Positions 26,359 through 64,000 of a stretch of DNA of 64,000 nucleotides are shown one piece after another. Positions within the stretch are counted from its first letter, which is position 1. The number at the start of each line of letters is the position of its first letter. The position numbers and the translations under genes were made by a program. The stretch is from Longimicrobiales bacterium (GTDB lineage: Bacteria; Gemmatimonadota; Gemmatimonadetes; Longimicrobiales; Gaopeijiaceae): contig JAPKBW010000001.1 of the NCBI GenBank assembly GCA_028823235.1, positions 142,405-206,404 of the forward strand, written 5' to 3'. The notes beneath the pieces are model-generated. The model saw only the letters and a program-made list of their open reading frames with translations, made no database searches and was not told the origin of the DNA.

Positions 26359-27354
26359 TTACTCCGAAGCCACCGCCGACACTACGACTGTGATGTCCTG
26401 GTCGTGGTAAAGCGCTCCGTCGTCACCCCTGGCCCGCAAGATGTACGTCCCCGGCATATCGAAGATCACGGAGGTATGCCAGACACCGTCCTCCGGGACA
26501 GCTGGGCGAGTCCAGAGCGGAGCCCAAGGTGAGTTGGAACCGTTCCGCGTGTCTTCCCAGGTTTTCACCTGCGGTGGATCGAACTCCGGGGTGGCCTCAC
26601 CCTCGGCGCGGTATACGAACCACGCGACGTGATGCCAGACGACCTTTTGGACCGTAATCCGAGTCGGAGGACGAAGCTGTCCCGCACTAAGCGCCGGAGG
26701 GCCTTCCATCTTGGCGAGGGCAGCAGCAGCACGCTCCTGGCGTGCCTCCCAGTTCTCGATCGCCTCCTCCAGGCCGTCGTCCGTCATGCGGACTGCGAGT
26801 TCGAGCGACTGACCGACCAAAACCTGATACTCGGTGCCGCCTTCCACGGTAATCTCGGGCACGTTATTCGCTCGGGTCTTAGCGTTACTGGCGCCGACTC
26901 CCAGAGCACCGGTCTCTGACGCAACCACGATATTGTCGATGACCTGATCGATACCCATGGTCCCGTAAGCGTACTGAGTTTTCCCGGCTGAGGTGAGCGT
27001 CCAGACAATCTCCTCATCCTCTCCGAGGTCGGCAGGCACCGGAACCGTAAAGACGAAACGGTTGCGGCGTGGTCGAAAGTGTGTGGGTTGGCCCTGATCA
27101 GCCGCGATTGGTGAGAAAAAGTTGTCCTCACCGACAGAGACGTCGACCTCCTCCTGCCAGTTCCGGTTCATGTAACCGAACACCATGGATTTCGAGCCGT
27201 CTTCGTGCTGGATCCACCCCTCGTACGCCGGGGCAACGTCCTGCCCTCTCTGGTACGCGATCTGACCGTCGAGCGCGGCGCCATCGGCCAACGTGATGCC
27301 GGCCGCAATCGAAAAGGCCGTGCTGAGGCGGGCCAAGGTCAAACCGTGTTTCAT
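26359..27354 (-). CDS. Exported protein of unknown family, partner of the heme-c/Cu-monooxygenase-like protein (copy 1)
   Basis: ATG at 27354 overlaps the upstream stop (ATGA). Signal-like N-terminus. Paralogous to 60542-61507 (shared APxxxGxxxxxDGxxxxxFGxxNRN...GEDNF...GGQPTxF...VPADxxxD core and a beta-rich C-terminus). Confidence 0.7.
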   Translation of the reverse strand: MKHGLTLARLSTAFSIAAGITLADGAALDGQIAYQRGQDVAPAYEGWIQHEDGSKSMVFGYMNRNWQEEVDVSVGEDNFFSPIAADQGQPTHFRPRRNRFVFTVPVPADLGEDEEIVWTLTSAGKTQYAYGTMGIDQVIDNIVVASETGALGVGASNAKTRANNVPEITVEGGTEYQVLVGQSLELAVRMTDDGLEEAIENWEARQERAAAALAKMEGPPALSAGQLRPPTRITVQKVVWHHVAWFVYRAEGEATPEFDPPQVKTWEDTRNGSNSPWAPLWTRPAVPEDGVWHTSVIFDMPGTYILRARGDDGALYHDQDITVVVSAVASE

Positions 27355-28754
27355 CGACCACCTGCCGGTATGACCGAACAGAGCGGACACCCAATCACAT
27401 GATCGTTGGGGCCGAGATCAAGACGTTCACGGCGCTCGGCCATCGCAGCTTCGAACTGCTCCTGTGACATGGACAACCTCATGCCGAGATCGATGAACAT
27501 GTTGGCGACCGATCTGTTGCCGGAGCCCTGCCAGTTCCGCGGGTCGGGGATGTTGAAGTTCTCTTCGGTGTTGTTCATGTAGCCGGTGATGTGAAGCACT
27601 GTGCCGGCCGGAAGGAGTGGCTGATAGTTCTCCTCAAACGTGTAGGTGCGCACCCAGTTGTGGTCGTACCCAACGCAGGAAAGCGTCTCAACGTTGAAGC
27701 CCCAGATCGCCTCGAGGCACATGCGGTCGCCCGGGGCGTGCAGGTGCGGCTCGAAGGAAACGACCTTGGTCGGTGTCCGGAGGACGGTGTACGCGTGCAG
27801 CTCCTGGTCCTTCTCCCCGGCCTGGATGTCAATGTCAGACCCGTTACCGAGGCCGAGAATCGACTCGCGATAGGTTGGCTCGTACCCCTCCGGGTGGAAG
27901 GTGAAGCCGAACTGAAGCCTCGCCCGCGTATCGAGACCGTTCGAATGCAGGTGTGTCGAGTTGGACACGAGCTTGGAACCCGTGCGCAGAAGTCGGCCGG
28001 CATCCTGGTCAAAGACGTCACCGTTACGCCCGACTTCGTGGACCGGCCACACCGTCCGACGACCCTCGCCTTCCTCGTTGAGCGTGCTCCACACCATGTG
28101 ATGAATCACGAACCGGCCGCCCACGGTCTCGCGCCCGTTGCCTTCCGATGGCACGTCATTGATTTCCCTGATCTCGACGGATTTTACATACCGGTCCTCG
28201 AGAATCGGAATGTCGATCGGCGCGATGTCACCCCACCAGTCGGGCTCACCGGCCTCAACTAGAAACTCGTCGGTCGTCACGACCACGTCCGGCTCGCCGA
28301 GTGTCCAGGCGCCCGAATCGTCGAACTCGAGCGGAGCGGGCATGTCGGCCGGGTCCCCTTCCGGGGCACCGCTGCTGGCCCAGTCAGCGATCATTGCAAT
28401 CTCATCATCGGTCAGCGACGGATCATTCTTGAAGTGCTGAATCCCGATGTCCTTCTCGACGTACCACGGAGGCATGGTGCCCATGCGGTCGCGAATGGCC
28501 GTGCGTCGGGCGATTCGCCCCGCATACCGCCGCGCATCCTCGTACCGGACGAGCGACATCGGCGCGACGCCGTTCGGACGGTGACAGTTCACGCAGCTGT
28601 TCTGGAAAATTGGCGCGATATCGCGACTGAACGTCACATCGTTAGGCTCACCACCTTCCTGAGCGGCAGCCGGCGTAGCAGCACAGGCTGCCAGCATGGC
28701 CACCGCGGCGGTGGTCCCAGTAGTCGATAGGCGTGGCATTGTGAACTTGGACAT
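27351..28754 (-). CDS. Exported fusion protein: N-terminal c-type heme domain (CxxCH) + PHM/DBH-like type-II copper monooxygenase domains (copy 1)
   Basis: AAGGA Shine-Dalgarno sits 5 nt before ATG 28754, with a signal peptide. RDIAPIFQNSCVNCH is a heme-c site. Ligand pattern VIHHM ... THLH ... PHLH ... ANMF with PHM-like spacing, plus the C-domain signature HNW...TFEENYQPLLPAGTVLHITGYMNNTE. Confidence 0.7.
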   Translation of the reverse strand: MSKFTMPRLSTTGTTAAVAMLAACAATPAAAQEGGEPNDVTFSRDIAPIFQNSCVNCHRPNGVAPMSLVRYEDARRYAGRIARRTAIRDRMGTMPPWYVEKDIGIQHFKNDPSLTDDEIAMIADWASSGAPEGDPADMPAPLEFDDSGAWTLGEPDVVVTTDEFLVEAGEPDWWGDIAPIDIPILEDRYVKSVEIREINDVPSEGNGRETVGGRFVIHHMVWSTLNEEGEGRRTVWPVHEVGRNGDVFDQDAGRLLRTGSKLVSNSTHLHSNGLDTRARLQFGFTFHPEGYEPTYRESILGLGNGSDIDIQAGEKDQELHAYTVLRTPTKVVSFEPHLHAPGDRMCLEAIWGFNVETLSCVGYDHNWVRTYTFEENYQPLLPAGTVLHITGYMNNTEENFNIPDPRNWQGSGNRSVANMFIDLGMRLSMSQEQFEAAMAERRERLDLGPNDHVIGCPLCSVIPAGGR

Positions 28755-28987
28755 GAGATCCTTTGGCAATTTCGAGCGAAACGCAGGGCACGCGGACAAG
28801 GGCAAGGCTTCGAGCTTCCGCGGGCCAGAATGGAACAGCTAACAGGTTAGGCCCTGCCCTGATGGGATGACAAGCACCGACAAAGCATACGGTTGATGAC
28901 AGCCCACTTCTTGCCCCATCTCGACCCCACTCGGATGTTGGCGTGATTAGACTGTACAGCGCCCAAATTCGCTCAGAGACATTTGCT

Positions 28988-56489: not shown

Positions 56490-57497
56490 TTGAGTAGCTC
56501 ACCCCTGCTAGAGGTCCGGGACCTGCAGACCAGCTTCGTCTTGGGGCGACGCACCATGGTCGCAGTAGACGGGGTTGGATTCACGGTGGACGCCGGTGAG
56601 ACTCTCGCCATCGTCGGGGAGAGTGGGTCGGGGAAGTCCGTCACTGCGCTGTCCGTCATGCGGCTTCTTCCCGCCAGGGTAGGCCAGATCACGCAGGGGT
56701 CGGTCCGGCTCGGTGAGAAAGACCTCGTCCAATTGCCCGAGGAGGAGATGCGTACCATTCGGGGAAAGGAGATCGGCATGATTTTCCAGGAACCGATGAC
56801 GAGCCTCAACCCTGTGCACACCATAGGCGCACAAATTTCAGAAGTCCTGATCGAGCACGAGGGGCTCTCCCACGCGGAGGCCCGAACGCGCGCGATCGAA
56901 CAGCTCGAGATCGTCGGCATATCGGAGCCGGCACTCCGCGTGGACAGCTATCCCCACGAGATGTCCGGCGGAATGCGTCAGCGTGCCATGATCGCCATGG
57001 CGCTCGCATGCCGTCCGAGTCTCCTGATTGCTGACGAACCCACCACTGCACTGGACGTGACGATTCAAGCCCAAGTCCTGGATCTCATGGAGGAGCTTCA
57101 GGAACAGTTGGGCATGGCGATCATTTTCATCACCCACGACCTCGGCGTCGTGGCCCAGATGGCGCAGCGAGTGGTGGTGATGTACGCCGGGCAGGTCGTC
57201 GAAAGTGCTTCTGTGACAGAGATCTTCGGACGCCCCCGGATGCCCTACACGGCCGGGCTCATCGCATCGATTCCTCGACTCGGTAGTGCAAACGGAAAGC
57301 AGCGTCTCCGGACGATTCCCGGCAACGTACCATCCATTTCGGAGCGACCTGCCGGCTGTCGGTTCTCCACCCGATGCCCGCACGTGCAACCCGAATGCCG
57401 GACGACCGATCCACCCCTCGAGCAGATCTCCGAGGGGCACGAGGTTCGCTGTCTTCGCTGGCGCGAGCTGGACCTGACCGAAGAGGTCACGTCGTGA
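56490..57497 (+). CDS. ABC transporter ATP-binding protein, DppD/OppD-like
   Basis: Walker A GESGSGKS, signature MSGGMRQR, Walker [13 protein letters not shown], and the oligopeptide-type C-terminal Cys-rich tail. TTG start. Confidence 0.9.
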
Positions 57498-58462
57498 GCG
57501 ATCACCTCCTCCAGGTCGAAGGCCTCGTCAAGCACTTTCCCGTCCGAGGGGGAGCGCTGAACCGGATAGTCAGTCAGGTGCAGGCGGTAAACGGCGTCTC
57601 CTTTACTGTGCGCCGCGGCGAGGTTCTCGGCCTCGTAGGCGAGAGCGGTTCAGGGAAGACCACGGTCGGCCGCCTGGTGCTCCGCCTTGAAGAGGCGACT
57701 GCCGGAAAGGTCGTGTTCGACGGTACCAACGTACTGGACCTGTCCAAGAGAGATCTGCGCCGCTTCCGCAAACGGATGCAGATCATCTTCCAGGACCCCT
57801 ACGCCAGCCTGAATCCGCGAGAGAAGGTTCGGACAGTCATCGGCCATGCCCTCGCCTTGCACAGCATCGGCACGCCCGCGAGTCGGCCCGACCGGACCGT
57901 CGAACTCATCGAGCAGGTGGGCCTCTCCACGGCCCACCTGGATCGGTTCCCGCATGAGTTCTCCGGTGGGCAGCGACAGAGGATCGGTATCGCGCGGGCG
58001 CTTGCTGTGAACCCGGACTTCCTGGTCGCCGACGAACCGGTCTCTGCGCTCGACGTCTCGATCCAGGCGCAAGTCATAAACCTTCTGAGCGATCTCAAAG
58101 AAGAACTCGATCTTACGATGCTCTTCATTGCCCACGACCTGGCCGTGGTGGAGCACATCTGCGATCGGGTAGCCGTAATGTATCTCGGCAAGATTATGGA
58201 AATCGCCCCGTCCAACGCCCTCTACAGAACTCCCAACCATCCCTACACCGAGGCGCTTCTCTCTGCTGTCCCGGTGCCTGAGCCGGGACGTCAGCGGAAA
58301 CGGACAGTCCTGAGCGGTGACATTCCTAGTCCGATCGACCCCCCGTCAGGGTGCGTTTTTCGAAGCCGCTGCCCTCGCGCCGAGGCGATCTGCGCGGAGG
58401 AAGTGCCGCATCTGAAGAAGGTGGGGCCGGATCACTTCAGTGCCTGTCACCTCACCACTTGA
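57494..58462 (+). CDS. ABC transporter ATP-binding protein, DppF/OppF-like
   Basis: GTG 57494 overlaps the upstream stop (GTGA). Walker A GESGSGKT, signature FSGGQRQR, Walker [13 protein letters not shown]. Confidence 0.9.
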
Positions 58463-58505: not shown

Positions 58506-58988
58506 ATGTCCCGACTGACCCTGGGAATCGCATCACTTGTCCTGCTCGCATCCTGCTCGCCGGCCGTGTCTTCCGACCCGCCCCGTGACATGGCGGCTGA
58601 GGTCGCCTCGCTGAGCGAGGCCGCAATTGCATACCATGCTGCCGCCACAGCCAAGGACGCTGCAACGGTCGTCGCGAGCTACGATTGGGATGCCGTGATG
58701 GTGCCCCCGAACGAGTCGCTCGTGGAAGGAATCACTGAAGTGCAGTACTACCGGTTCGGCTTCATCTCCACCCCCGGCGTCTCCCTCGATTTCGAACTCC
58801 TGAGGGTAGAGGTCTCTGAGAACGGCGACATGGGATGGACGCTAGCGGAAGGCGATATCACGATCGAACAGGACGGCGCCGAGCCGGGTCAGGATCTCGT
58901 GCGTGACTTCCACGTCTGGTCGAGACAGCCAGACGGGCGCTGGACAGTGGTCGTCGACGTATGGAATTCGGGAATGCCTACCGGGTAG
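58506..58988 (+). CDS. NTF2-like (SnoaL/DUF4440-type) lipoprotein
   Basis: Lipobox LLASCS. About 140-aa mature domain ending ...FHVWSRQPDGRWTVVVDVWN, typical of DUF4440/SnoaL-like folds. Confidence 0.55.
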   Translation: MSRLTLGIASLVLLASCSPAVSSDPPRDMAAEVASLSEAAIAYHAAATAKDAATVVASYDWDAVMVPPNESLVEGITEVQYYRFGFISTPGVSLDFELLRVEVSENGDMGWTLAEGDITIEQDGAEPGQDLVRDFHVWSRQPDGRWTVVVDVWNSGMPTG

Positions 58989-59056
58989 CGGGATGCGGTC
59001 GCCCCGTCAGCGACTGCACGGCTCTTCGACTATTCCGGTCGGACGGACGTGAGAGA

Positions 59057-59098
59057 AAGGCCCAGCTTGAGGTAACAACCTCAAGCTGGGCCTTTGTT
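59057..59098. terminator. Bidirectional intrinsic terminator between convergent operons
   Basis: Perfect 16-bp stem AGGCCCAGCTTGAGGT / ACCTCAAGCTGGGCCT with loop AACA. It is followed by TTGTTG on the + strand and preceded by AGAGAAA (TTTCTCT on the - strand). Confidence 0.7.
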
Positions 59099-59125: not shown

Positions 59126-60472
59126 TCATCGGTCGGGCTGTTCGCTAATCAGTCGAGCCGCACGGTCAGCCTTGATCTTCTCCATCCCGTCTTCATCGAG
59201 ATGGGTTATGGCAAGCCATGTATGCGACATCTCGTCGGCCGTGCGATCGCCAATACCCACCCACTGGTCGGGGTCCGGGTTGTACCGGTTGTTCTCGGTG
59301 TTGTCGTACCAACCGGTCACGATCAACTGGTCACCTACTTCCAGTAGCGGCGCAACGTCGTCTTCGTAGATGTGGCTGTGGTGCCACAGAGCACTCCAGT
59401 TCGAAACCATGCTCACCGTTTCCCGTCGGCCATTTGCTCGCAGGACCTGGAGCGACATCGCAACCAGTCGCGTGTGACCGTGCGGCTGGAAACTGTCGAT
59501 TCGCACCGGGGTGTCGAACGAATGGAAACCTTGAGTCATCAGCGTTCCGTGAGGAGCGATGTCATACCCACGGCCGCCGTTCAGGAAATACAAACTCAGC
59601 GTCTGGTCGTATTTTCCTTCGTATTCCTCCGGATGGAACCAGATTCCGATCTCAACCTGATCGTCCACGAGGTCCACGCCGTTCGGCCAGTAGTGAATGT
59701 CGAACGCAACGTCGGAACCGGCGGGAGCCCTCCGGCACGCACCCTCTGGCACAATCTCGCCGACCTTCCCAAGGGCGTACTCCGAGAGTCGGCCTGCGCT
59801 TTGACCGTCGACCCGGAAAGACGAGTTGGCGTGGTGAGCCACAGCCCGCCCTTCGATCGAGGGCTTAGTCTCAATGGCCATGATGCACCGATCGTCCGTG
59901 ATCCCGGTCGGAACCAGAGGCCGCCACCAGCGGTCCTGACCGACCTCAGGAACGTCGTAAGGGTCCGACCTGATGATCAAATCCGGCTCACCGAACTGCC
60001 CTGCCAAACCGAACTCGGCGGGGTCAGGCCACTCGACAGGCGCCGGCAAATCCGCAGGGTCGCCCTCAGGCGAGCCAGCTGCGACCCAGGCCGTGATGGT
60101 CGCGATATCTTCCTCGCTCATCCGCCAGTCTTCCTTGAGATCCTGAATGCCGACATCCGTGTCGTACTGATACGGAGGCATGTCCCGGCCCTCGACCATG
60201 CGGCTCATGCGGCGAGCGTAGCGTCGTGCATCCTGATACGTCATGAGCGACATCGGCCCGATGGCGCCCGGCTGGTGACAAACCTGGCAGTTCGCCTGCA
60301 AGATGGGAGCGACGTCCCGCGTGAAGGTCAGCTCCGCCGACGCATCCGGACTCGGCCCAGTCATCTGCTGGGCAGCGAGTTCACCTGTATGGCCGGCCCC
60401 GAGGGTCACGAGAAGGGCTAGTACGCCCGTCGTAACACTCTGCGGCATCGACCGATGGATGGACATTTGCAT
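59126..60472 (-). CDS. Exported fusion protein: N-terminal c-type heme domain (CxxCH) + PHM/DBH-like type-II copper monooxygenase domains (copy 2)
   Basis: AGGAG lies 6 nt upstream of ATG 60472, with a signal peptide. Heme-c site RDVAPILQANCQVCH. Ligand pattern AVAHHA ... DIHY ... PHGH ... TADEMS, and the C-domain signature SNW...YEDDVAPLLEVGDQLIVTGWYDNTE. Confidence 0.7.
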   Translation of the reverse strand: MQMSIHRSMPQSVTTGVLALLVTLGAGHTGELAAQQMTGPSPDASAELTFTRDVAPILQANCQVCHQPGAIGPMSLMTYQDARRYARRMSRMVEGRDMPPYQYDTDVGIQDLKEDWRMSEEDIATITAWVAAGSPEGDPADLPAPVEWPDPAEFGLAGQFGEPDLIIRSDPYDVPEVGQDRWWRPLVPTGITDDRCIMAIETKPSIEGRAVAHHANSSFRVDGQSAGRLSEYALGKVGEIVPEGACRRAPAGSDVAFDIHYWPNGVDLVDDQVEIGIWFHPEEYEGKYDQTLSLYFLNGGRGYDIAPHGTLMTQGFHSFDTPVRIDSFQPHGHTRLVAMSLQVLRANGRRETVSMVSNWSALWHHSHIYEDDVAPLLEVGDQLIVTGWYDNTENNRYNPDPDQWVGIGDRTADEMSHTWLAITHLDEDGMEKIKADRAARLISEQPDR

Positions 60473-60541
60473 GGTCAACTCCTCTCAAGACTCACTGGGC
60501 TTGTCCGCGATGGACCGGACCCTAATCCATAATACTGCCTG

Positions 60542-61507
60542 CTACTCGTTCACGCTCACGACTACGTATCCATTCGACCAGCAGCACTGCTGACCGGGCA
60601 TACTATCCGGAGCGCCGAAGTTGTCGATACGGATCCGGATCACGTACTCACCTGGCGTGTCGAACGTCGCCGTGAATTGTCCCCGATTGGCCAGCGGCCC
60701 TTCGTTGGGGATCGGGACGACATCCGTGGTATTCACCGGCCCTGGGCCGAACGGGCGAGCCCGTCCGCGCGCCGGCGCGGCGTTTGCCGGTGCCTCTAGC
60801 ATCGACTCAAAGGCGATCATGCCGCCGACAGGTCCCTGGTGCTTCCAGAGGGTCATGTTGACCAGACCGAGGTCGCGCTCGCCGCGGTCCTCCGCCCAGA
60901 AACGAACCTCTACTGGCTCTCCGACCTTGGTGGTCAGAACCTCGGGATGCTCGACACCTCCGATACCCCAGCCCGCTAGATCCTCTTCGCTGAAGCGAAT
61001 GCCGGGACGGAGCGAGCCCGCGGCCATCGCGCCACTGCTCAGCTCATAGGCGCCCTTGATGATCGGGCCGGGTGATTCCAACCTGCCCGGGACGCGGGTC
61101 GTGTAGCCATCGGTCGTCACGGTCCACCATACGTCACCGTCGAAATCGGCCGGAACCACCACGCCGAAGGCGCCCCGTTCGCGTGGCCCTCCGAAGCCTG
61201 AGTACCCGACGACCGGAAACGTAGTTGGCTGACCGCCGTCAAACTCCGACGGCTCAATGAAGTTGTCCTCGCCGAGTGCGATCTCGATCAAGTCTGAGTC
61301 ATTTCGGTTCAGAAAGCCGAACGACAAGGTGTAGGTGCCGTCCGCGTTCGGGTAGAAACCGTCGAAATAGGGTGCGACGAAGTTCTCGTTCGCGTTGGAG
61401 GGGGCCAGCGGAAACTCCCGCTGCGTCCAGTCCTGGGCGTCGGCACCTACCGTCAGAGTGGCCGCACACACCACGGTGAGCGTCAGGGTGGTCTTGAGTC
61501 GCGTCAC
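60542..61507 (-). CDS. Exported protein of unknown family, partner of the heme-c/Cu-monooxygenase-like protein (copy 2)
   Basis: GGAGGA lies 5-6 nt upstream of GTG 61507, with signal peptide LTLTVVCAATLTVGADA. Paralogous to 26359-27354. Confidence 0.7.
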   Translation of the reverse strand: MTRLKTTLTLTVVCAATLTVGADAQDWTQREFPLAPSNANENFVAPYFDGFYPNADGTYTLSFGFLNRNDSDLIEIALGEDNFIEPSEFDGGQPTTFPVVGYSGFGGPRERGAFGVVVPADFDGDVWWTVTTDGYTTRVPGRLESPGPIIKGAYELSSGAMAAGSLRPGIRFSEEDLAGWGIGGVEHPEVLTTKVGEPVEVRFWAEDRGERDLGLVNMTLWKHQGPVGGMIAFESMLEAPANAAPARGRARPFGPGPVNTTDVVPIPNEGPLANRGQFTATFDTPGEYVIRIRIDNFGAPDSMPGQQCCWSNGYVVVSVNE

Positions 61508-61599
61508 TTGGTCCTCCTCACTGCTGTTCACCTGCTCGCAGGAAAGCTTAAGGATTGCAAGGCGATCCGAAAGGTGCGCGGACGCGGTGACCCACTGAG

Positions 61600-62082
61600 C
61601 TAACGGCGCATAGTGTCCATCGGCATGTCCGCTGCGTCGTCCATCGGCATGTCCATCGCTCCCCCCATTGGCATCTCCACTCCCATCTCCGCCAATCGCT
61701 GCATCTCGCGGAGCCCCTCCACCAGAGAATCAGGCACGAGCGTCCATGTGTAGTCGATGACGAGTTTGACCTCGTCCTCGCTGAGCGGAGACTGCGGCAT
61801 CGCCGGGGGCACGCCCGTGCGGATAATCCTGACGAGCTGATCCTCGGCATGGTGTCCGAGGTGCTCAAGGAGACTGGGCGGCTCTATGGGCAGGCTTGCC
61901 GCCATCGGACCGTTCCCGAGCCCAAGTTCCCCGTGGCACATCGCACAGTTTCCTGCGTAGAGCGCCTGACCTTCACTTACTTCGACGACCTCACGGTCCT
62001 CCGCCCCCCCGCAGGCGGTGAACGACATGGCGACACCGGCCAAGGCCGCGACGCTCCGAGACCAGATCGCTGTTCGTCTCAT
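61600..62082 (-). CDS. Lipoprotein c-type cytochrome with Met-rich C-terminal tail
   Basis: Lipobox MSFTACGG and heme site GNCAMCHG. The tail EMGVEMPMGGAMDMPMDDAADMPMDTM carries repeated MxM/MPM motifs. Confidence 0.8.
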   Translation of the reverse strand: MRRTAIWSRSVAALAGVAMSFTACGGAEDREVVEVSEGQALYAGNCAMCHGELGLGNGPMAASLPIEPPSLLEHLGHHAEDQLVRIIRTGVPPAMPQSPLSEDEVKLVIDYTWTLVPDSLVEGLREMQRLAEMGVEMPMGGAMDMPMDDAADMPMDTMRR

Positions 62083-62128
62083 CAGTTCCTCGCTCGGTTC
62101 GTCAATTCCACACGGTCTTCCTTGGCGG

Positions 62129-63076
62129 CTACGGCTTTGCCGAGTGCACCAGCACGGCGGTCACCAAAATGACGACAGCGGCAAGGGACACCTCCCATAC
62201 ACCACGGCGCCCAACCACTTCGGCTCCCTGCTCCGTGTCGCAGAGGGGCAGACCCCGTCTCCAGTTCAGGAAGCCAAGGCCAAAAATCACGAGAGCCAGT
62301 GCGACCTTCGCAGACAAGAGGCGCCCATAGGTCAGTGTCCACAGATCGGACACTGCATGCAAATGCTTCCACGCCAGTCCCGCGCCCATCGCCACGAGCG
62401 TGATCCCGCTGACCAACGCCAGAGGTGAGAAGCTTCGGATCTGTGAGGCGAAAATCGCCGGACTGTTCTCCCCACGAACGCGGCCGACTGTCAGGATCAC
62501 CGCCAGTGTGCCCATCCACACCCCCGCCGCGAGCGTGTGCGTCGCGTCCACGGTCACGGCAAGCGTTCGCGCCGAGTCGACACCCATCGCGTGTCCAGAC
62601 ATGGCGAGCGTTGCCGCGAGCGTGACGACGAGGGGCATAGCCACCGCCCATCCGGCGCTCAGAACGACCGGGGCCTCCGGCTGTGCCGCCTCAGAGGTAC
62701 TGCGACTTTTTCGACCCGCCAGCCACAAGGCCACGGCGAGCAGGGTCAGAACTGCGCCCTGGGCGATCCAGACGGAACCCCAAAAAATTTCAAAGAGCAG
62801 GAACGAGACGTCGTCCCGCAGGGGAACGAAGGGATCTCGAAAGCCCATGACCTGCACGACCAGCCGCAGGGTCCACGCTACGAAAAGAACGCCTGTCGAA
62901 ATCAGGCCGAGCGAGGCGACCCGTTGTTCTATACGCGTGATGGTTGTCGCATTTTCTGCGGCCAGCACCTTTAGCGCGCGAGGCATGACCAAGACCCGCC
63001 AGGCGACGCACCCCACGACCACTGTGGTACCGCTGAAGAGGAGCCACTGCTGGAACGTGGTCAGCGCAGTAATCAA
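62129..63076 (-). CDS. copD: CopD-family copper transport/resistance membrane protein
   Basis: Polytopic membrane protein directly after copC. TTG 63076 overlaps the copC stop (TTGA); the longest ORF starts at 63142. Confidence 0.75.
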   Translation of the reverse strand: MITALTTFQQWLLFSGTTVVVGCVAWRVLVMPRALKVLAAENATTITRIEQRVASLGLISTGVLFVAWTLRLVVQVMGFRDPFVPLRDDVSFLLFEIFWGSVWIAQGAVLTLLAVALWLAGRKSRSTSEAAQPEAPVVLSAGWAVAMPLVVTLAATLAMSGHAMGVDSARTLAVTVDATHTLAAGVWMGTLAVILTVGRVRGENSPAIFASQIRSFSPLALVSGITLVAMGAGLAWKHLHAVSDLWTLTYGRLLSAKVALALVIFGLGFLNWRRGLPLCDTEQGAEVVGRRGVWEVSLAAVVILVTAVLVHSAKP

Positions 63077-63492
63077 CGCCCGACAACGTCGAAGGTGAAC
63101 GAACCCCGCATCACATGGCCATCGTCCGCAATGCAGCGCCATTGAATGACATACTTCCCTCCAGACAGCCCGGCAGCGATCTGAACCGAGAGCTGCCTTG
63201 GATCCTCGGAGTCGGCCTCCGGCGGACTGCTCCGAATGAGCTGGCGGGAGGAGTTCACAACGCGGATCGAAGCGCCACGCATGAGCGGAGCCTCAGAAAA
63301 GAAAAGGCGGACCTCGCTCACTTCGCCGTCCAGGACTTCCTCGTCGGCCGGCGTCGAGGCATCGAGCGTGATGTGCGGGGCCACGTGTGGGATCACGGAA
63401 GCTGACCTCGCCGTCCCAGCAACCAGCAGAACCAAGCCGAGGGCAGTGAGCGCTACCCGGCGCGTTCGTTCAACGATATCTCGACGACTCAT
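63073..63492 (-). CDS. copC: CopC-domain periplasmic copper-binding protein
   Basis: ATG 63492, with signal peptide ending GTARSAS. The mature N-terminus ...HVAPHITLDASTPADEEVL has the His at the start of the CopC fold. C-terminal YVIQWRCIADDGHVMRGSFTF is the CopC signature. Confidence 0.8.
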   Translation of the reverse strand: MSRRDIVERTRRVALTALGLVLLVAGTARSASVIPHVAPHITLDASTPADEEVLDGEVSEVRLFFSEAPLMRGASIRVVNSSRQLIRSSPPEADSEDPRQLSVQIAAGLSGGKYVIQWRCIADDGHVMRGSFTFDVVGR

Positions 63493-63610: not shown

Positions 63611-64000
63611 ATGCTCATCAGGACCACACCTGCGTTTCTTGCAGCCCTCGTTCTCGCCCCGATCGCTGTCCAGCCAGTGACAGGACAGGACTCGGGTGAT
63701 CTCGGACGCGCGGAAGCACTCCAACGGCTCCAGCCAGATCTGTACGACCTCGTCGTGCGACTGGAGCGAGCGCATGGTGTGCTCCTCGGCGAACTCGCCC
63801 GAGAGGGACAAACGGTTCGTGAGAGTGGCGGCGACGTGCCGACTTTCGGCTTCGAGTTCGACATGGTCGACCGCTTGACGTTTCTGGTCCAGGCCGAGGG
63901 AACCTCTGAAGAGGAAGCAGATGCCGCAGAGTCGGGATACGCGGCCCTTGGTCCACGCGGTGCGGAGATCGTCCGGTGGGGTCAGGCATTCCAGAGAGAG
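63611..64000 (+). CDS. Hypothetical secreted protein, 5' part (runs off the right edge)
   Basis: My own translation from ATG 63611 gives MLIRTTPAFLAALVLAPIAVQPVTGQDSGDLGRAEALQRL..., open for 130 codons to the window end with a signal-peptide-like start. It is absent from the ORF track, presumably because it has no stop in the window. Confidence 0.4.
   Translation, partial: MLIRTTPAFLAALVLAPIAVQPVTGQDSGDLGRAEALQRLQPDLYDLVVRLERAHGVLLGELAREGQTVRESGGDVPTFGFEFDMVDRLTFLVQAEGTSEEEADAAESGYAALGPRGAEIVRWGQAFQRE

Follow-up and report, generated by a model that had tools for sequence, protein, structure and literature searches.

The five-gene operon

Five co-directional genes occupy positions 59126-63492 on the minus strand of a 64,000-nucleotide stretch of a Longimicrobiales genome (contig JAPKBW010000001.1), the whole of which is referred to here as the window. 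In order, they encode CopC, CopD, a monoheme cytochrome c, an exported protein of ~320-330 amino acids (aa) that belongs to no known family (the partner), and PHMcyt, in which a heme c domain is fused to a core resembling peptidylglycine alpha-hydroxylating monooxygenase (PHM) and dopamine beta-hydroxylase (DBH). The last two form a conserved module that, on balance, appears to be a periplasmic copper monooxygenase. This layout had been proposed in an initial annotation of the sequence, and is seen in both the listing of open reading frames (ORFs) and the domain searches. Each of the five has many conserved homologues, so that all are real genes and not chance ORFs. The features of the unit are as follows.

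63073-63492, minus strand: copC, periplasmic copper-binding protein (Pfam CopC, 2.6e-19; NCBIfam CopC, 3.2e-17)
62129-63076, minus strand: copD, copper-homeostasis membrane protein (Pfam CopD, 3.2e-12; NCBIfam CopD, 1.6e-18)
61600-62082, minus strand: accessory monoheme cytochrome c (Pfam Cytochrome_CBB3, 3.5e-12)
60542-61507 (alternative start, GTG 61531), minus strand: partner, exported, ~320-330 aa (adjacency in 79/86 loci, CCW motif)
59126-60472, minus strand: PHMcyt, exported fusion of heme c and a PHM/DBH-like core (ORF, Shine-Dalgarno site, AlphaFold2 model, Foldseek, homologues)
60074-60337, minus strand: heme c domain of PHMcyt, ~residues 48-135 (weak Pfam matches, conserved CxxCH)
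59189-59986, minus strand: PHM/DBH-like double jelly-roll core of PHMcyt, ~residues 165-430 (hhalign, conservation)
59056-59095: hairpin terminator, shared with the convergent plus-strand gene at 58506-58988 (read in the sequence)

The junctions between these genes, and the Shine-Dalgarno sites of the last three, read in the sequence as initially annotated. The TTGA at 63073-63076 is the overlap of copC and copD, and an equal 4-nt overlap occurs in gene calls of orthologous contigs; the TTG start that it implies for copD is backed by the gene call in locus L087. The cytochrome c start (ATG 62082) is preceded by a 46-nt gap containing GAGGAA. GAGGAGG lies 7 nt before the partner start at GTG 61507, which leaves a gap of 92 nt, while the earlier in-frame GTG at 61531 would leave 68 nt. 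Between the partner and PHMcyt lie 69 nt that include GAGAGGA; from its start at ATG 60472 PHMcyt is 448 aa long (450 aa from TTG 60478).

The terminator lies ~30 nt past the PHMcyt stop. Its hairpin, AAAGGCCCAGCTTGAGGT-TGTT-ACCTCAAGCTGGGCCTTT, has an 18-bp stem (15 G+C-rich pairs and 3 A-T pairs) closed by a loop of 4 nt; an A run precedes it and a T run follows. The hairpin had been described as 16 bp long and 27 nt from the stop, a trivial difference. The convergent gene that shares it (58506-58988, plus strand) encodes a small exported SnoaL_3/DUF4440-like protein (Pfam, 3e-08). Within the operon, a simple scan found two internal terminators where 2.6 were expected from shuffled sequence, and hence no excess. 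The Rfam search gave no element at the operon, no inverted repeat is present in the 118-nt divergent intergenic region upstream of it, and the single promoter-like match equals chance expectation.

Fold, copper ligands and heme motif of PHMcyt

The AlphaFold2 model of the 450-aa PHMcyt was built on 50 homologues (pLDDT 77.8, pTM 0.77). When this model is compared with the Protein Data Bank (PDB) by Foldseek, the 29 best matches are all human DBH (4ZEL, E 3e-11) or rat PHM (27 structures, E ~1e-9 to 3e-8), over ~290-330 aligned columns and at ~10-16 % identity. Below rank 29 the matches are to unrelated proteins and much poorer, and no structure of a bacterial member was found among the Foldseek matches in the PDB. 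The nearest known enzymes are PHM (e.g. PDB 1PHM) and DBH (PDB 4ZEL), and also tyramine beta-monooxygenase and MOXD1.

The same relationship is recovered by profile alignment. An alignment of 33 full-length, diverse PHMcyt relatives (26-51 % identity), designated A3, aligns by hhalign to the rat PHM core, whose sequence was verified against PDB chains, with 95 % probability and an E-value of 4e-8 over 232 columns. The ligands of both copper sites are in register:

H215 and H216: H107 and H108 of rat PHM, CuH site (hhalign, A3)
H262: H172 of rat PHM, CuH site (hhalign, A3)
H333 and H335: H242 and H244 of rat PHM, CuM site (hhalign, A3)
M417: M314 of rat PHM, CuM site (hhalign, A3)

Only 11 columns of A3 are invariant, and these six residues account for six of them. 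Across 131 PHMcyt relatives the CuH triad is kept in all 131 and the CuM triad in 129. The motifs picked out by eye in the initial annotation map to residues 64-68 (CQVCH), 213-217 (AVAHHA), 260-263 (DIHY), 332-335 (PHGH) and 413-418 (TADEMS). Its proposal of six copper ligands in a PHM/DBH-type core is thus supported by the fold search, the profile alignment and the conservation of the His and Met positions among orthologs. Two divergent paralogues (L068, 5806-7494; L086, 11261-13153) keep CxxCH and the CuH histidine triad and carry Arg/Asn/Val at the CuM positions; these may be non-catalytic or otherwise metallated.

The residues that anchor the peptidylglycine carboxylate in PHM are not retained. 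R240, N316 and Y318 align by hhalign (A3) with Q331, H419 and W421 of PHMcyt, and Q331 is kept in 107 of the 131 relatives. The substrate pocket therefore differs from that of PHM, and the peptide C-alpha hydroxylation that had been offered as a speculation gains no support. Judged from its modelled fold and aligned ligands, PHMcyt is a member of the PHM/DBH superfamily; because the aligned anchor residues are replaced, it is not a peptidylglycine hydroxylase.

The N-terminal part is, as had been read from the sequence, a signal peptide and a CxxCH heme c domain, and the protein is an exported fusion of these to the core. CxxCH (C64-x-x-C67-H68) is kept in 127 of 131 relatives, and the four sequences without it are either short or missing the N-terminal region. 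The probable axial ligand is Met100, part of an MPP motif and conserved in 129/131; M76 is kept in 112/131. Pfam matches to this domain are weak (Cytochrome_CBB3, 0.0053, 17.5 bits against a cut-off of 27; also Haem_bd and Cytochrom_C), and Cytochrome_CBB3 is matched by 18 of the 33 relatives in A3. The suggested likeness to the planctomycete-type domain PSCyt1 was not borne out, there being no PSCyt1 match in the Pfam search of PHMcyt.

The conserved module and its neighbours

The homology search with PHMcyt gave more than 3,400 relatives, mostly from Gemmatimonadota/Longimicrobiales, which are named 'cytochrome c' or 'hypothetical protein' at source and have almost no precomputed Pfam domains. 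Its C-terminal 311 residues, searched against 1.84 billion representatives of 50 % identity clusters, match 2,910 clusters at E <= 1e-3, of which 1,008 reach E <= 1e-10. At least 587 stretches encoding PHMcyt relatives were found in a scan of species-representative genomes, in which E-values are relative to the candidate stretches only. Seven metagenomic loci and the best 79 of these stretches, which come from Gemmatimonadota, Vicinamibacterales/Acidobacteriota, Acidimicrobiia and Pseudohongiella/Gammaproteobacteria, make up the 86 loci surveyed by tblastn. The earlier statement that no characterised bacterial enzyme of this kind is known agrees with the PDB fold search, and no published study of a bacterial heme-fused PHM-like enzyme was found in the literature searched, the coverage of which is incomplete, so that a description elsewhere is possible.

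In 79 of the 86 loci, spread over four phyla, the partner gene directly adjoins that for PHMcyt. Its place is upstream of PHMcyt in the orthologs nearest to the window gene, and downstream of it in the group of 50-63 % identity. All 507 homologues of the partner are 'hypothetical', and neither Pfam nor NCBIfam searches place it in a family. Nothing meaningful was found among PDB sequences, where the profile searches gave a spurious designed-repeat match and GRASP matches. The protein consists of two beta-sandwich-like halves, and its AlphaFold2 model is confident in the C-terminal half alone; residues 26-173 have pLDDT < 50, though the N-terminal half is highly conserved. Foldseek returns only generic Ig-like folds for this model (best E, 1.7e-3). 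Near the C-terminus, C316-C317-W318 is kept in 74 of 76 sequences. A copper site in the partner was considered and is unlikely, since it has no conserved His/Met cluster and H231 is kept in only 60/76.

The window contains another copy of this gene pair.

26359-28805, minus strand: second, paralogous module, with a PHMcyt-like gene at 27351-28805 and a partner-like gene at 26359-27390 (tblastn, ORFs)

By tblastn the PHMcyt-like copy shares 34 % identity with the first PHMcyt, and the partner-like copy 33 % with the first partner. The PHMcyt-like copy keeps a heme motif (CVNCH) and all six copper ligands, and the partner-like copy is without CCW. Locus L006 has a tandem PHMcyt-partner-PHMcyt-PHMcyt-partner array. 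PHMcyt and partner have thus been duplicated together, in L006 as well as in the window with its second pair. The two make up the conserved unit, a periplasmic module of two genes in which the partner is obligate. A DsbD_TM (CcdA-like) gene stands directly upstream of the tandem array (L006/L007, 5115-12058).

Such a tight pairing could also mean that the partner is what PHMcyt acts upon. PHMcyt would then oxidise residues of the partner, for example the Cys-Cys-Trp, to form a cross-link, a quinone- or kynurenine-type cofactor or a metal site, and the modified partner would be the functional product, by analogy with MauG and pre-methylamine dehydrogenase or MbnH and MbnP. The one-to-one adjacency and co-duplication of the genes, the retention of CCW in nearly all partners, the lack of a recognisable catalytic or binding family, and a conserved N-terminal half that is poorly modelled alone are all consistent with this, as is the frequent occurrence of mbnPH-type genes with copper-handling genes. 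However, the partner of the second module lacks CCW while its PHMcyt keeps every ligand, the PQQ dehydrogenases adjacent to the module in other genomes (below) are left unexplained, and we know of no PHM-family enzyme that acts in cofactor maturation. We regard this explanation as unlikely, if worth keeping in view.

The other three genes of the operon are less regularly associated with the module. The copC and copD products pass their Pfam thresholds (70.5 bits against a cut-off of 23.3, and 47.2 against 32.1) and miss the NCBIfam equivalog cut-offs (62.9 against 95, and 67.4 against 195); CopC has an H-I-T-L motif after the signal peptide, and a DGH motif. The accessory cytochrome c bears FTAC, which is lipobox-like, and a CAMCH motif, and its last 32 residues form the Met-rich tail MQRLAEMGVEMPMGGAMDMPMDDAADMPMDTM. 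Cu(I)-binding proteins have tails of that kind. The ortholog in the corresponding position in L087, 65 % identical, has a similar tail, and in L093 Pfam identifies a cytochrome c gene at this place. The order copC-copD-cytochrome-partner-PHMcyt recurs in L087/L088 (84 %, genes overlapping by 4 nt) and L093 (83 %) only; it is absent from L089 (84 %), L090 (79 %) and more distant loci.

In the 86-locus survey, copC/copD occur within 8 kb of PHMcyt in one locus, and a homologue of the window-type cytochrome c near it in one locus. The linkage of these genes to PHMcyt that the initial annotation expected in other genomes thus holds for L087/L088 and L093 and is otherwise seen in 1 of the 86 loci. 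Its five-gene system does not hold as a unit, and the survey rejects copCD and the cytochrome as core components; what is shared is the adjacent partner, the 'unknown' of that annotation. In the loci that have them, copCD and the cytochrome separate the partner gene from a conserved divergent gene, and for this reason they look like an insertion between the two. An AT-skew shift over copCD was considered as a sign of foreign origin and is put down to membrane-protein composition instead.

The presence of copC, copD and a Met-rich cytochrome in one operon here, in L087 and in L093 would also fit a device for copper resistance or acquisition, in which PHMcyt binds or oxidises Cu(I). However, the copper genes are near the module in just that one other locus of the survey, the module expands by paralogy without them, and its ligands match a catalytic CuH/CuM pair. 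A role in copper homeostasis therefore seems very improbable.

The divergent gene is itself a recurrent neighbour.

63611-64000 (cut by the window end), plus strand: divergent accessory gene, 5' part, exported, full length ~355-375 aa (no known family)

It is 72 % identical to the gene in the matching position in L087 and is also present in L089 and L090; a 374-aa gene without Pfam match has its position in L093, a likeness by position alone. In six distant loci (L048, L060, L086, L068, L084 and L043) its relatives lie directly downstream of the partner. No Pfam domain was found in the product, and its 191 homologues are all hypothetical. The protein has conserved His-containing motifs (HGVLF, ILYGH, WAGHW, ALRHGIF and GHAAH). 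On the far side of the operon, beyond the convergent gene, two successive plus-strand ORFs (56490-58462) have ABC-transporter ATPase motifs (GESGSGKS; SGG..QR) and are oligopeptide/dipeptide-transporter-like, as read from the translations alone.

Among the clustered ORFs of the 8-kb flanks, the commonest other neighbours are dehydrogenases dependent on pyrroloquinoline quinone (PQQ), with Pfam PQQ matches as strong as 1e-188; 22 of 83 loci have one or more. Of 25 such genes, 14 lie within 1.5 kb of the module, against the 28 % that the available flank would predict (p 0.003, binomial), and several are co-directional with it, at gaps of a few bases. In seven of these loci PHMcyt is the sole CxxCH-bearing ORF within 8 kb. 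Genes of the PQQ alcohol/glucose-dehydrogenase type adjoin the module in L021 (5770-7845), L023 (2285-4501), L054 (6120-7910), L051 (5693-7909), L083 (5720-7999) and others, in many Acidobacteriota and Gemmatimonadota, and the one in L079 is itself a quinohemoprotein. Genes of the glucose/sorbosone dehydrogenase (GSDH) type (PF07995) directly flank the module in L087 (8359-9777), L092 (2742-4145) and L030 (6139-7566). A recurrent neighbour of ~370 aa, with the N-terminal motif PHGHPDLQGNWTN and no Pfam match, is found in 11 of 83 loci (e.g. L051, 1744-2862).

In a further reading, PHMcyt would oxygenate no substrate. Its heme could take electrons from a periplasmic dehydrogenase, PQQ-dependent or other, and its copper could reduce O2 or peroxide. 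The enrichment of PQQ dehydrogenases beside the module, at loci without another c-type cytochrome, is consistent with such an electron sink, as are the AhpC/TSA peroxiredoxin-like and thioredoxin-like domains of distant relatives. Against this, a simple oxidase would not be expected to have an obligate non-redox partner, Met ligation at CuM typically goes with C-H activation in PHM and dopamine beta-monooxygenase, and all characterised members of the fold are, to our knowledge, substrate monooxygenases. We consider an electron sink quite improbable.

Proposed function and comparison with known systems

We favour, with moderate confidence, the reading that PHMcyt and the partner are a periplasmic copper monooxygenase with a heme-fed two-copper core. 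PHMcyt would be exported with one covalent heme c ahead of a PHM/DBH-type double jelly-roll. Two electrons would pass singly to the CuH-type site (H215, H216, H262), which would serve electron transfer, with the fused heme and not ascorbate as their source, and O2 would be activated at the CuM-type site (H333, H335, M417). The reaction, if analogous to those of PHM, DBH and tyramine beta-monooxygenase, would most likely be hydroxylation of a C-H bond, with oxygen from O2, in a substrate other than peptidylglycine. The partner would most likely be a subunit, or would bind or present the substrate; that it is itself the substrate is less likely. CopC-CopD and the Met-rich lipoprotein cytochrome could plausibly supply copper and electrons in this genome and those closest to it, and in many other lineages a neighbouring PQQ-dependent dehydrogenase may be the electron source. 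What is probably new is a PHM-type oxygenase that would be fed by heme c rather than ascorbate and has an obligate partner from no known family.

The dehydrogenases allow an extension of this scheme that is decidedly speculative and rather unlikely. The oxygenase would make an alcohol, a hydroxylated sugar or a hydroxylated polymer, and the PQQ enzyme would oxidise this product and return two electrons to the heme, in a self-priming couple. The logic would be like that of methane monooxygenase with methanol dehydrogenase, or of a lytic polysaccharide monooxygenase (LPMO) with a PQQ/cytochrome partner, but with a PHM-type core. If so, an ascorbate-independent soluble copper hydroxylase would be spread through abundant soil and marine phyla.

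A number of observations weigh against the monooxygenase reading. PHMcyt remains below the Pfam gathering threshold, with Cu2_monoox_C at 13.1 bits (cut-off 23; E 0.066; residues 325-419), and Cu2_monooxygen is not among its Pfam matches. Thus, of the Pfam families named for this gene at the outset, Cu2_monoox_C and the cytochrome models are both matched, although only below threshold. Cu2_monoox_C is also matched by 13 of the 33 relatives in A3, and lies above the cut-off in three (P0225, P0228 and P0255; 25.9-27.1 bits). At the sequence level PHM is reached with the diverse alignment only: with the close-homologue profile, A1, hhalign against PHM is meaningless (0.9 % probability), and hmmsearch with A1 and phmmer with PHMcyt against PDB sequences found only a weak heme-motif match to hydrazine synthase. 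Confidence in the AlphaFold2 model is low at the heme loop (residues 65-76) and at residues 407-411. With the PHM anchors replaced, the chemistry could differ from that of PHM. CopCD and the cytochrome, being near few orthologs, are not essential to the module. The PQQ link, which the counts suggest, is statistical, and tblastn finds no PQQ dehydrogenase in the window.

PHM and DBH, known from eukaryotes, are the textbook examples of non-coupled two-copper monooxygenases; they are ascorbate-dependent, and the route of electrons to and between their coppers is debated. A bacterial, heme c-fed enzyme of this type, if the proposal is correct, would provide a tractable model for inter-copper electron transfer and extend the enzyme class to bacteria, and would indicate periplasmic C-H oxidation in Gemmatimonadota, Acidobacteriota, Acidimicrobiia and marine Gammaproteobacteria. 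With PHM and DBH, PHMcyt shares the two-domain double jelly-roll, the HH...H and HxH...M ligand patterns of CuH and CuM, the D-E-M context of the methionine and an extracytoplasmic location. It differs from them in being bacterial, in its fused N-terminal heme c, predicted to take over from soluble ascorbate, in lacking a DOMON domain, in its separate obligate partner, in its sub-threshold Pfam scores, and in having Q, H and W aligned with R240, N316 and Y318. One article (PMC8812541) mentions only that PHM folds as a double jelly-roll, and describes the family as eukaryotic.

Some distant bacterial relatives already carry the Cu2_monoox_C label in databases, often fused to AhpC/TSA and cytochrome c domains. 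In these (e.g. P0225, P0228, P0255 and P0182) the core is homologous (E down to 1e-40), the same six ligands are invariant, and a heme c domain directly precedes the core as in PHMcyt. They differ by extra thioredoxin-fold (AhpC/TSA or Redoxin) and/or EF-hand domains, whereas the PHMcyt subfamily consists of heme c and core only and goes unrecognised by Pfam. EF-hand calcium-binding motifs are present in P0225, P0169 and P0255 besides the AhpC/TSA and cytochrome c domains.

Three other types of system invite comparison. The pairing of CopC with CopD is familiar, and the 4-nt overlap in the window is typical of such pairs, but the joining of the two with a cuproenzyme module and a cytochrome is seen here in a small clade only. 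MauG with pre-methylamine dehydrogenase, and MbnH with MbnP, resemble the module by analogy in placing a c-type heme enzyme beside one dedicated exported beta-rich protein, with a link to copper. Unlike PHMcyt, MauG and MbnH are di-heme peroxidase-like and have no copper core, and PDB searches with the partner found no sequence or fold relation to these systems. LPMOs, which act with cellobiose dehydrogenase or PQQ-dependent AA12 pyranose dehydrogenase, and particulate methane monooxygenase, which acts with PQQ methanol dehydrogenase, are alike in that electrons could come via a cytochrome from a PQQ dehydrogenase in the periplasm or outside the cell. A corresponding coupling of the module to PQQ (PF01011) or GSDH gene products, absent from the window, we infer from the gene neighbourhood in relatives. 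PHMcyt differs from these enzymes in the type of copper site and in fold, and in that the cytochrome is fused to the predicted oxygenase itself.

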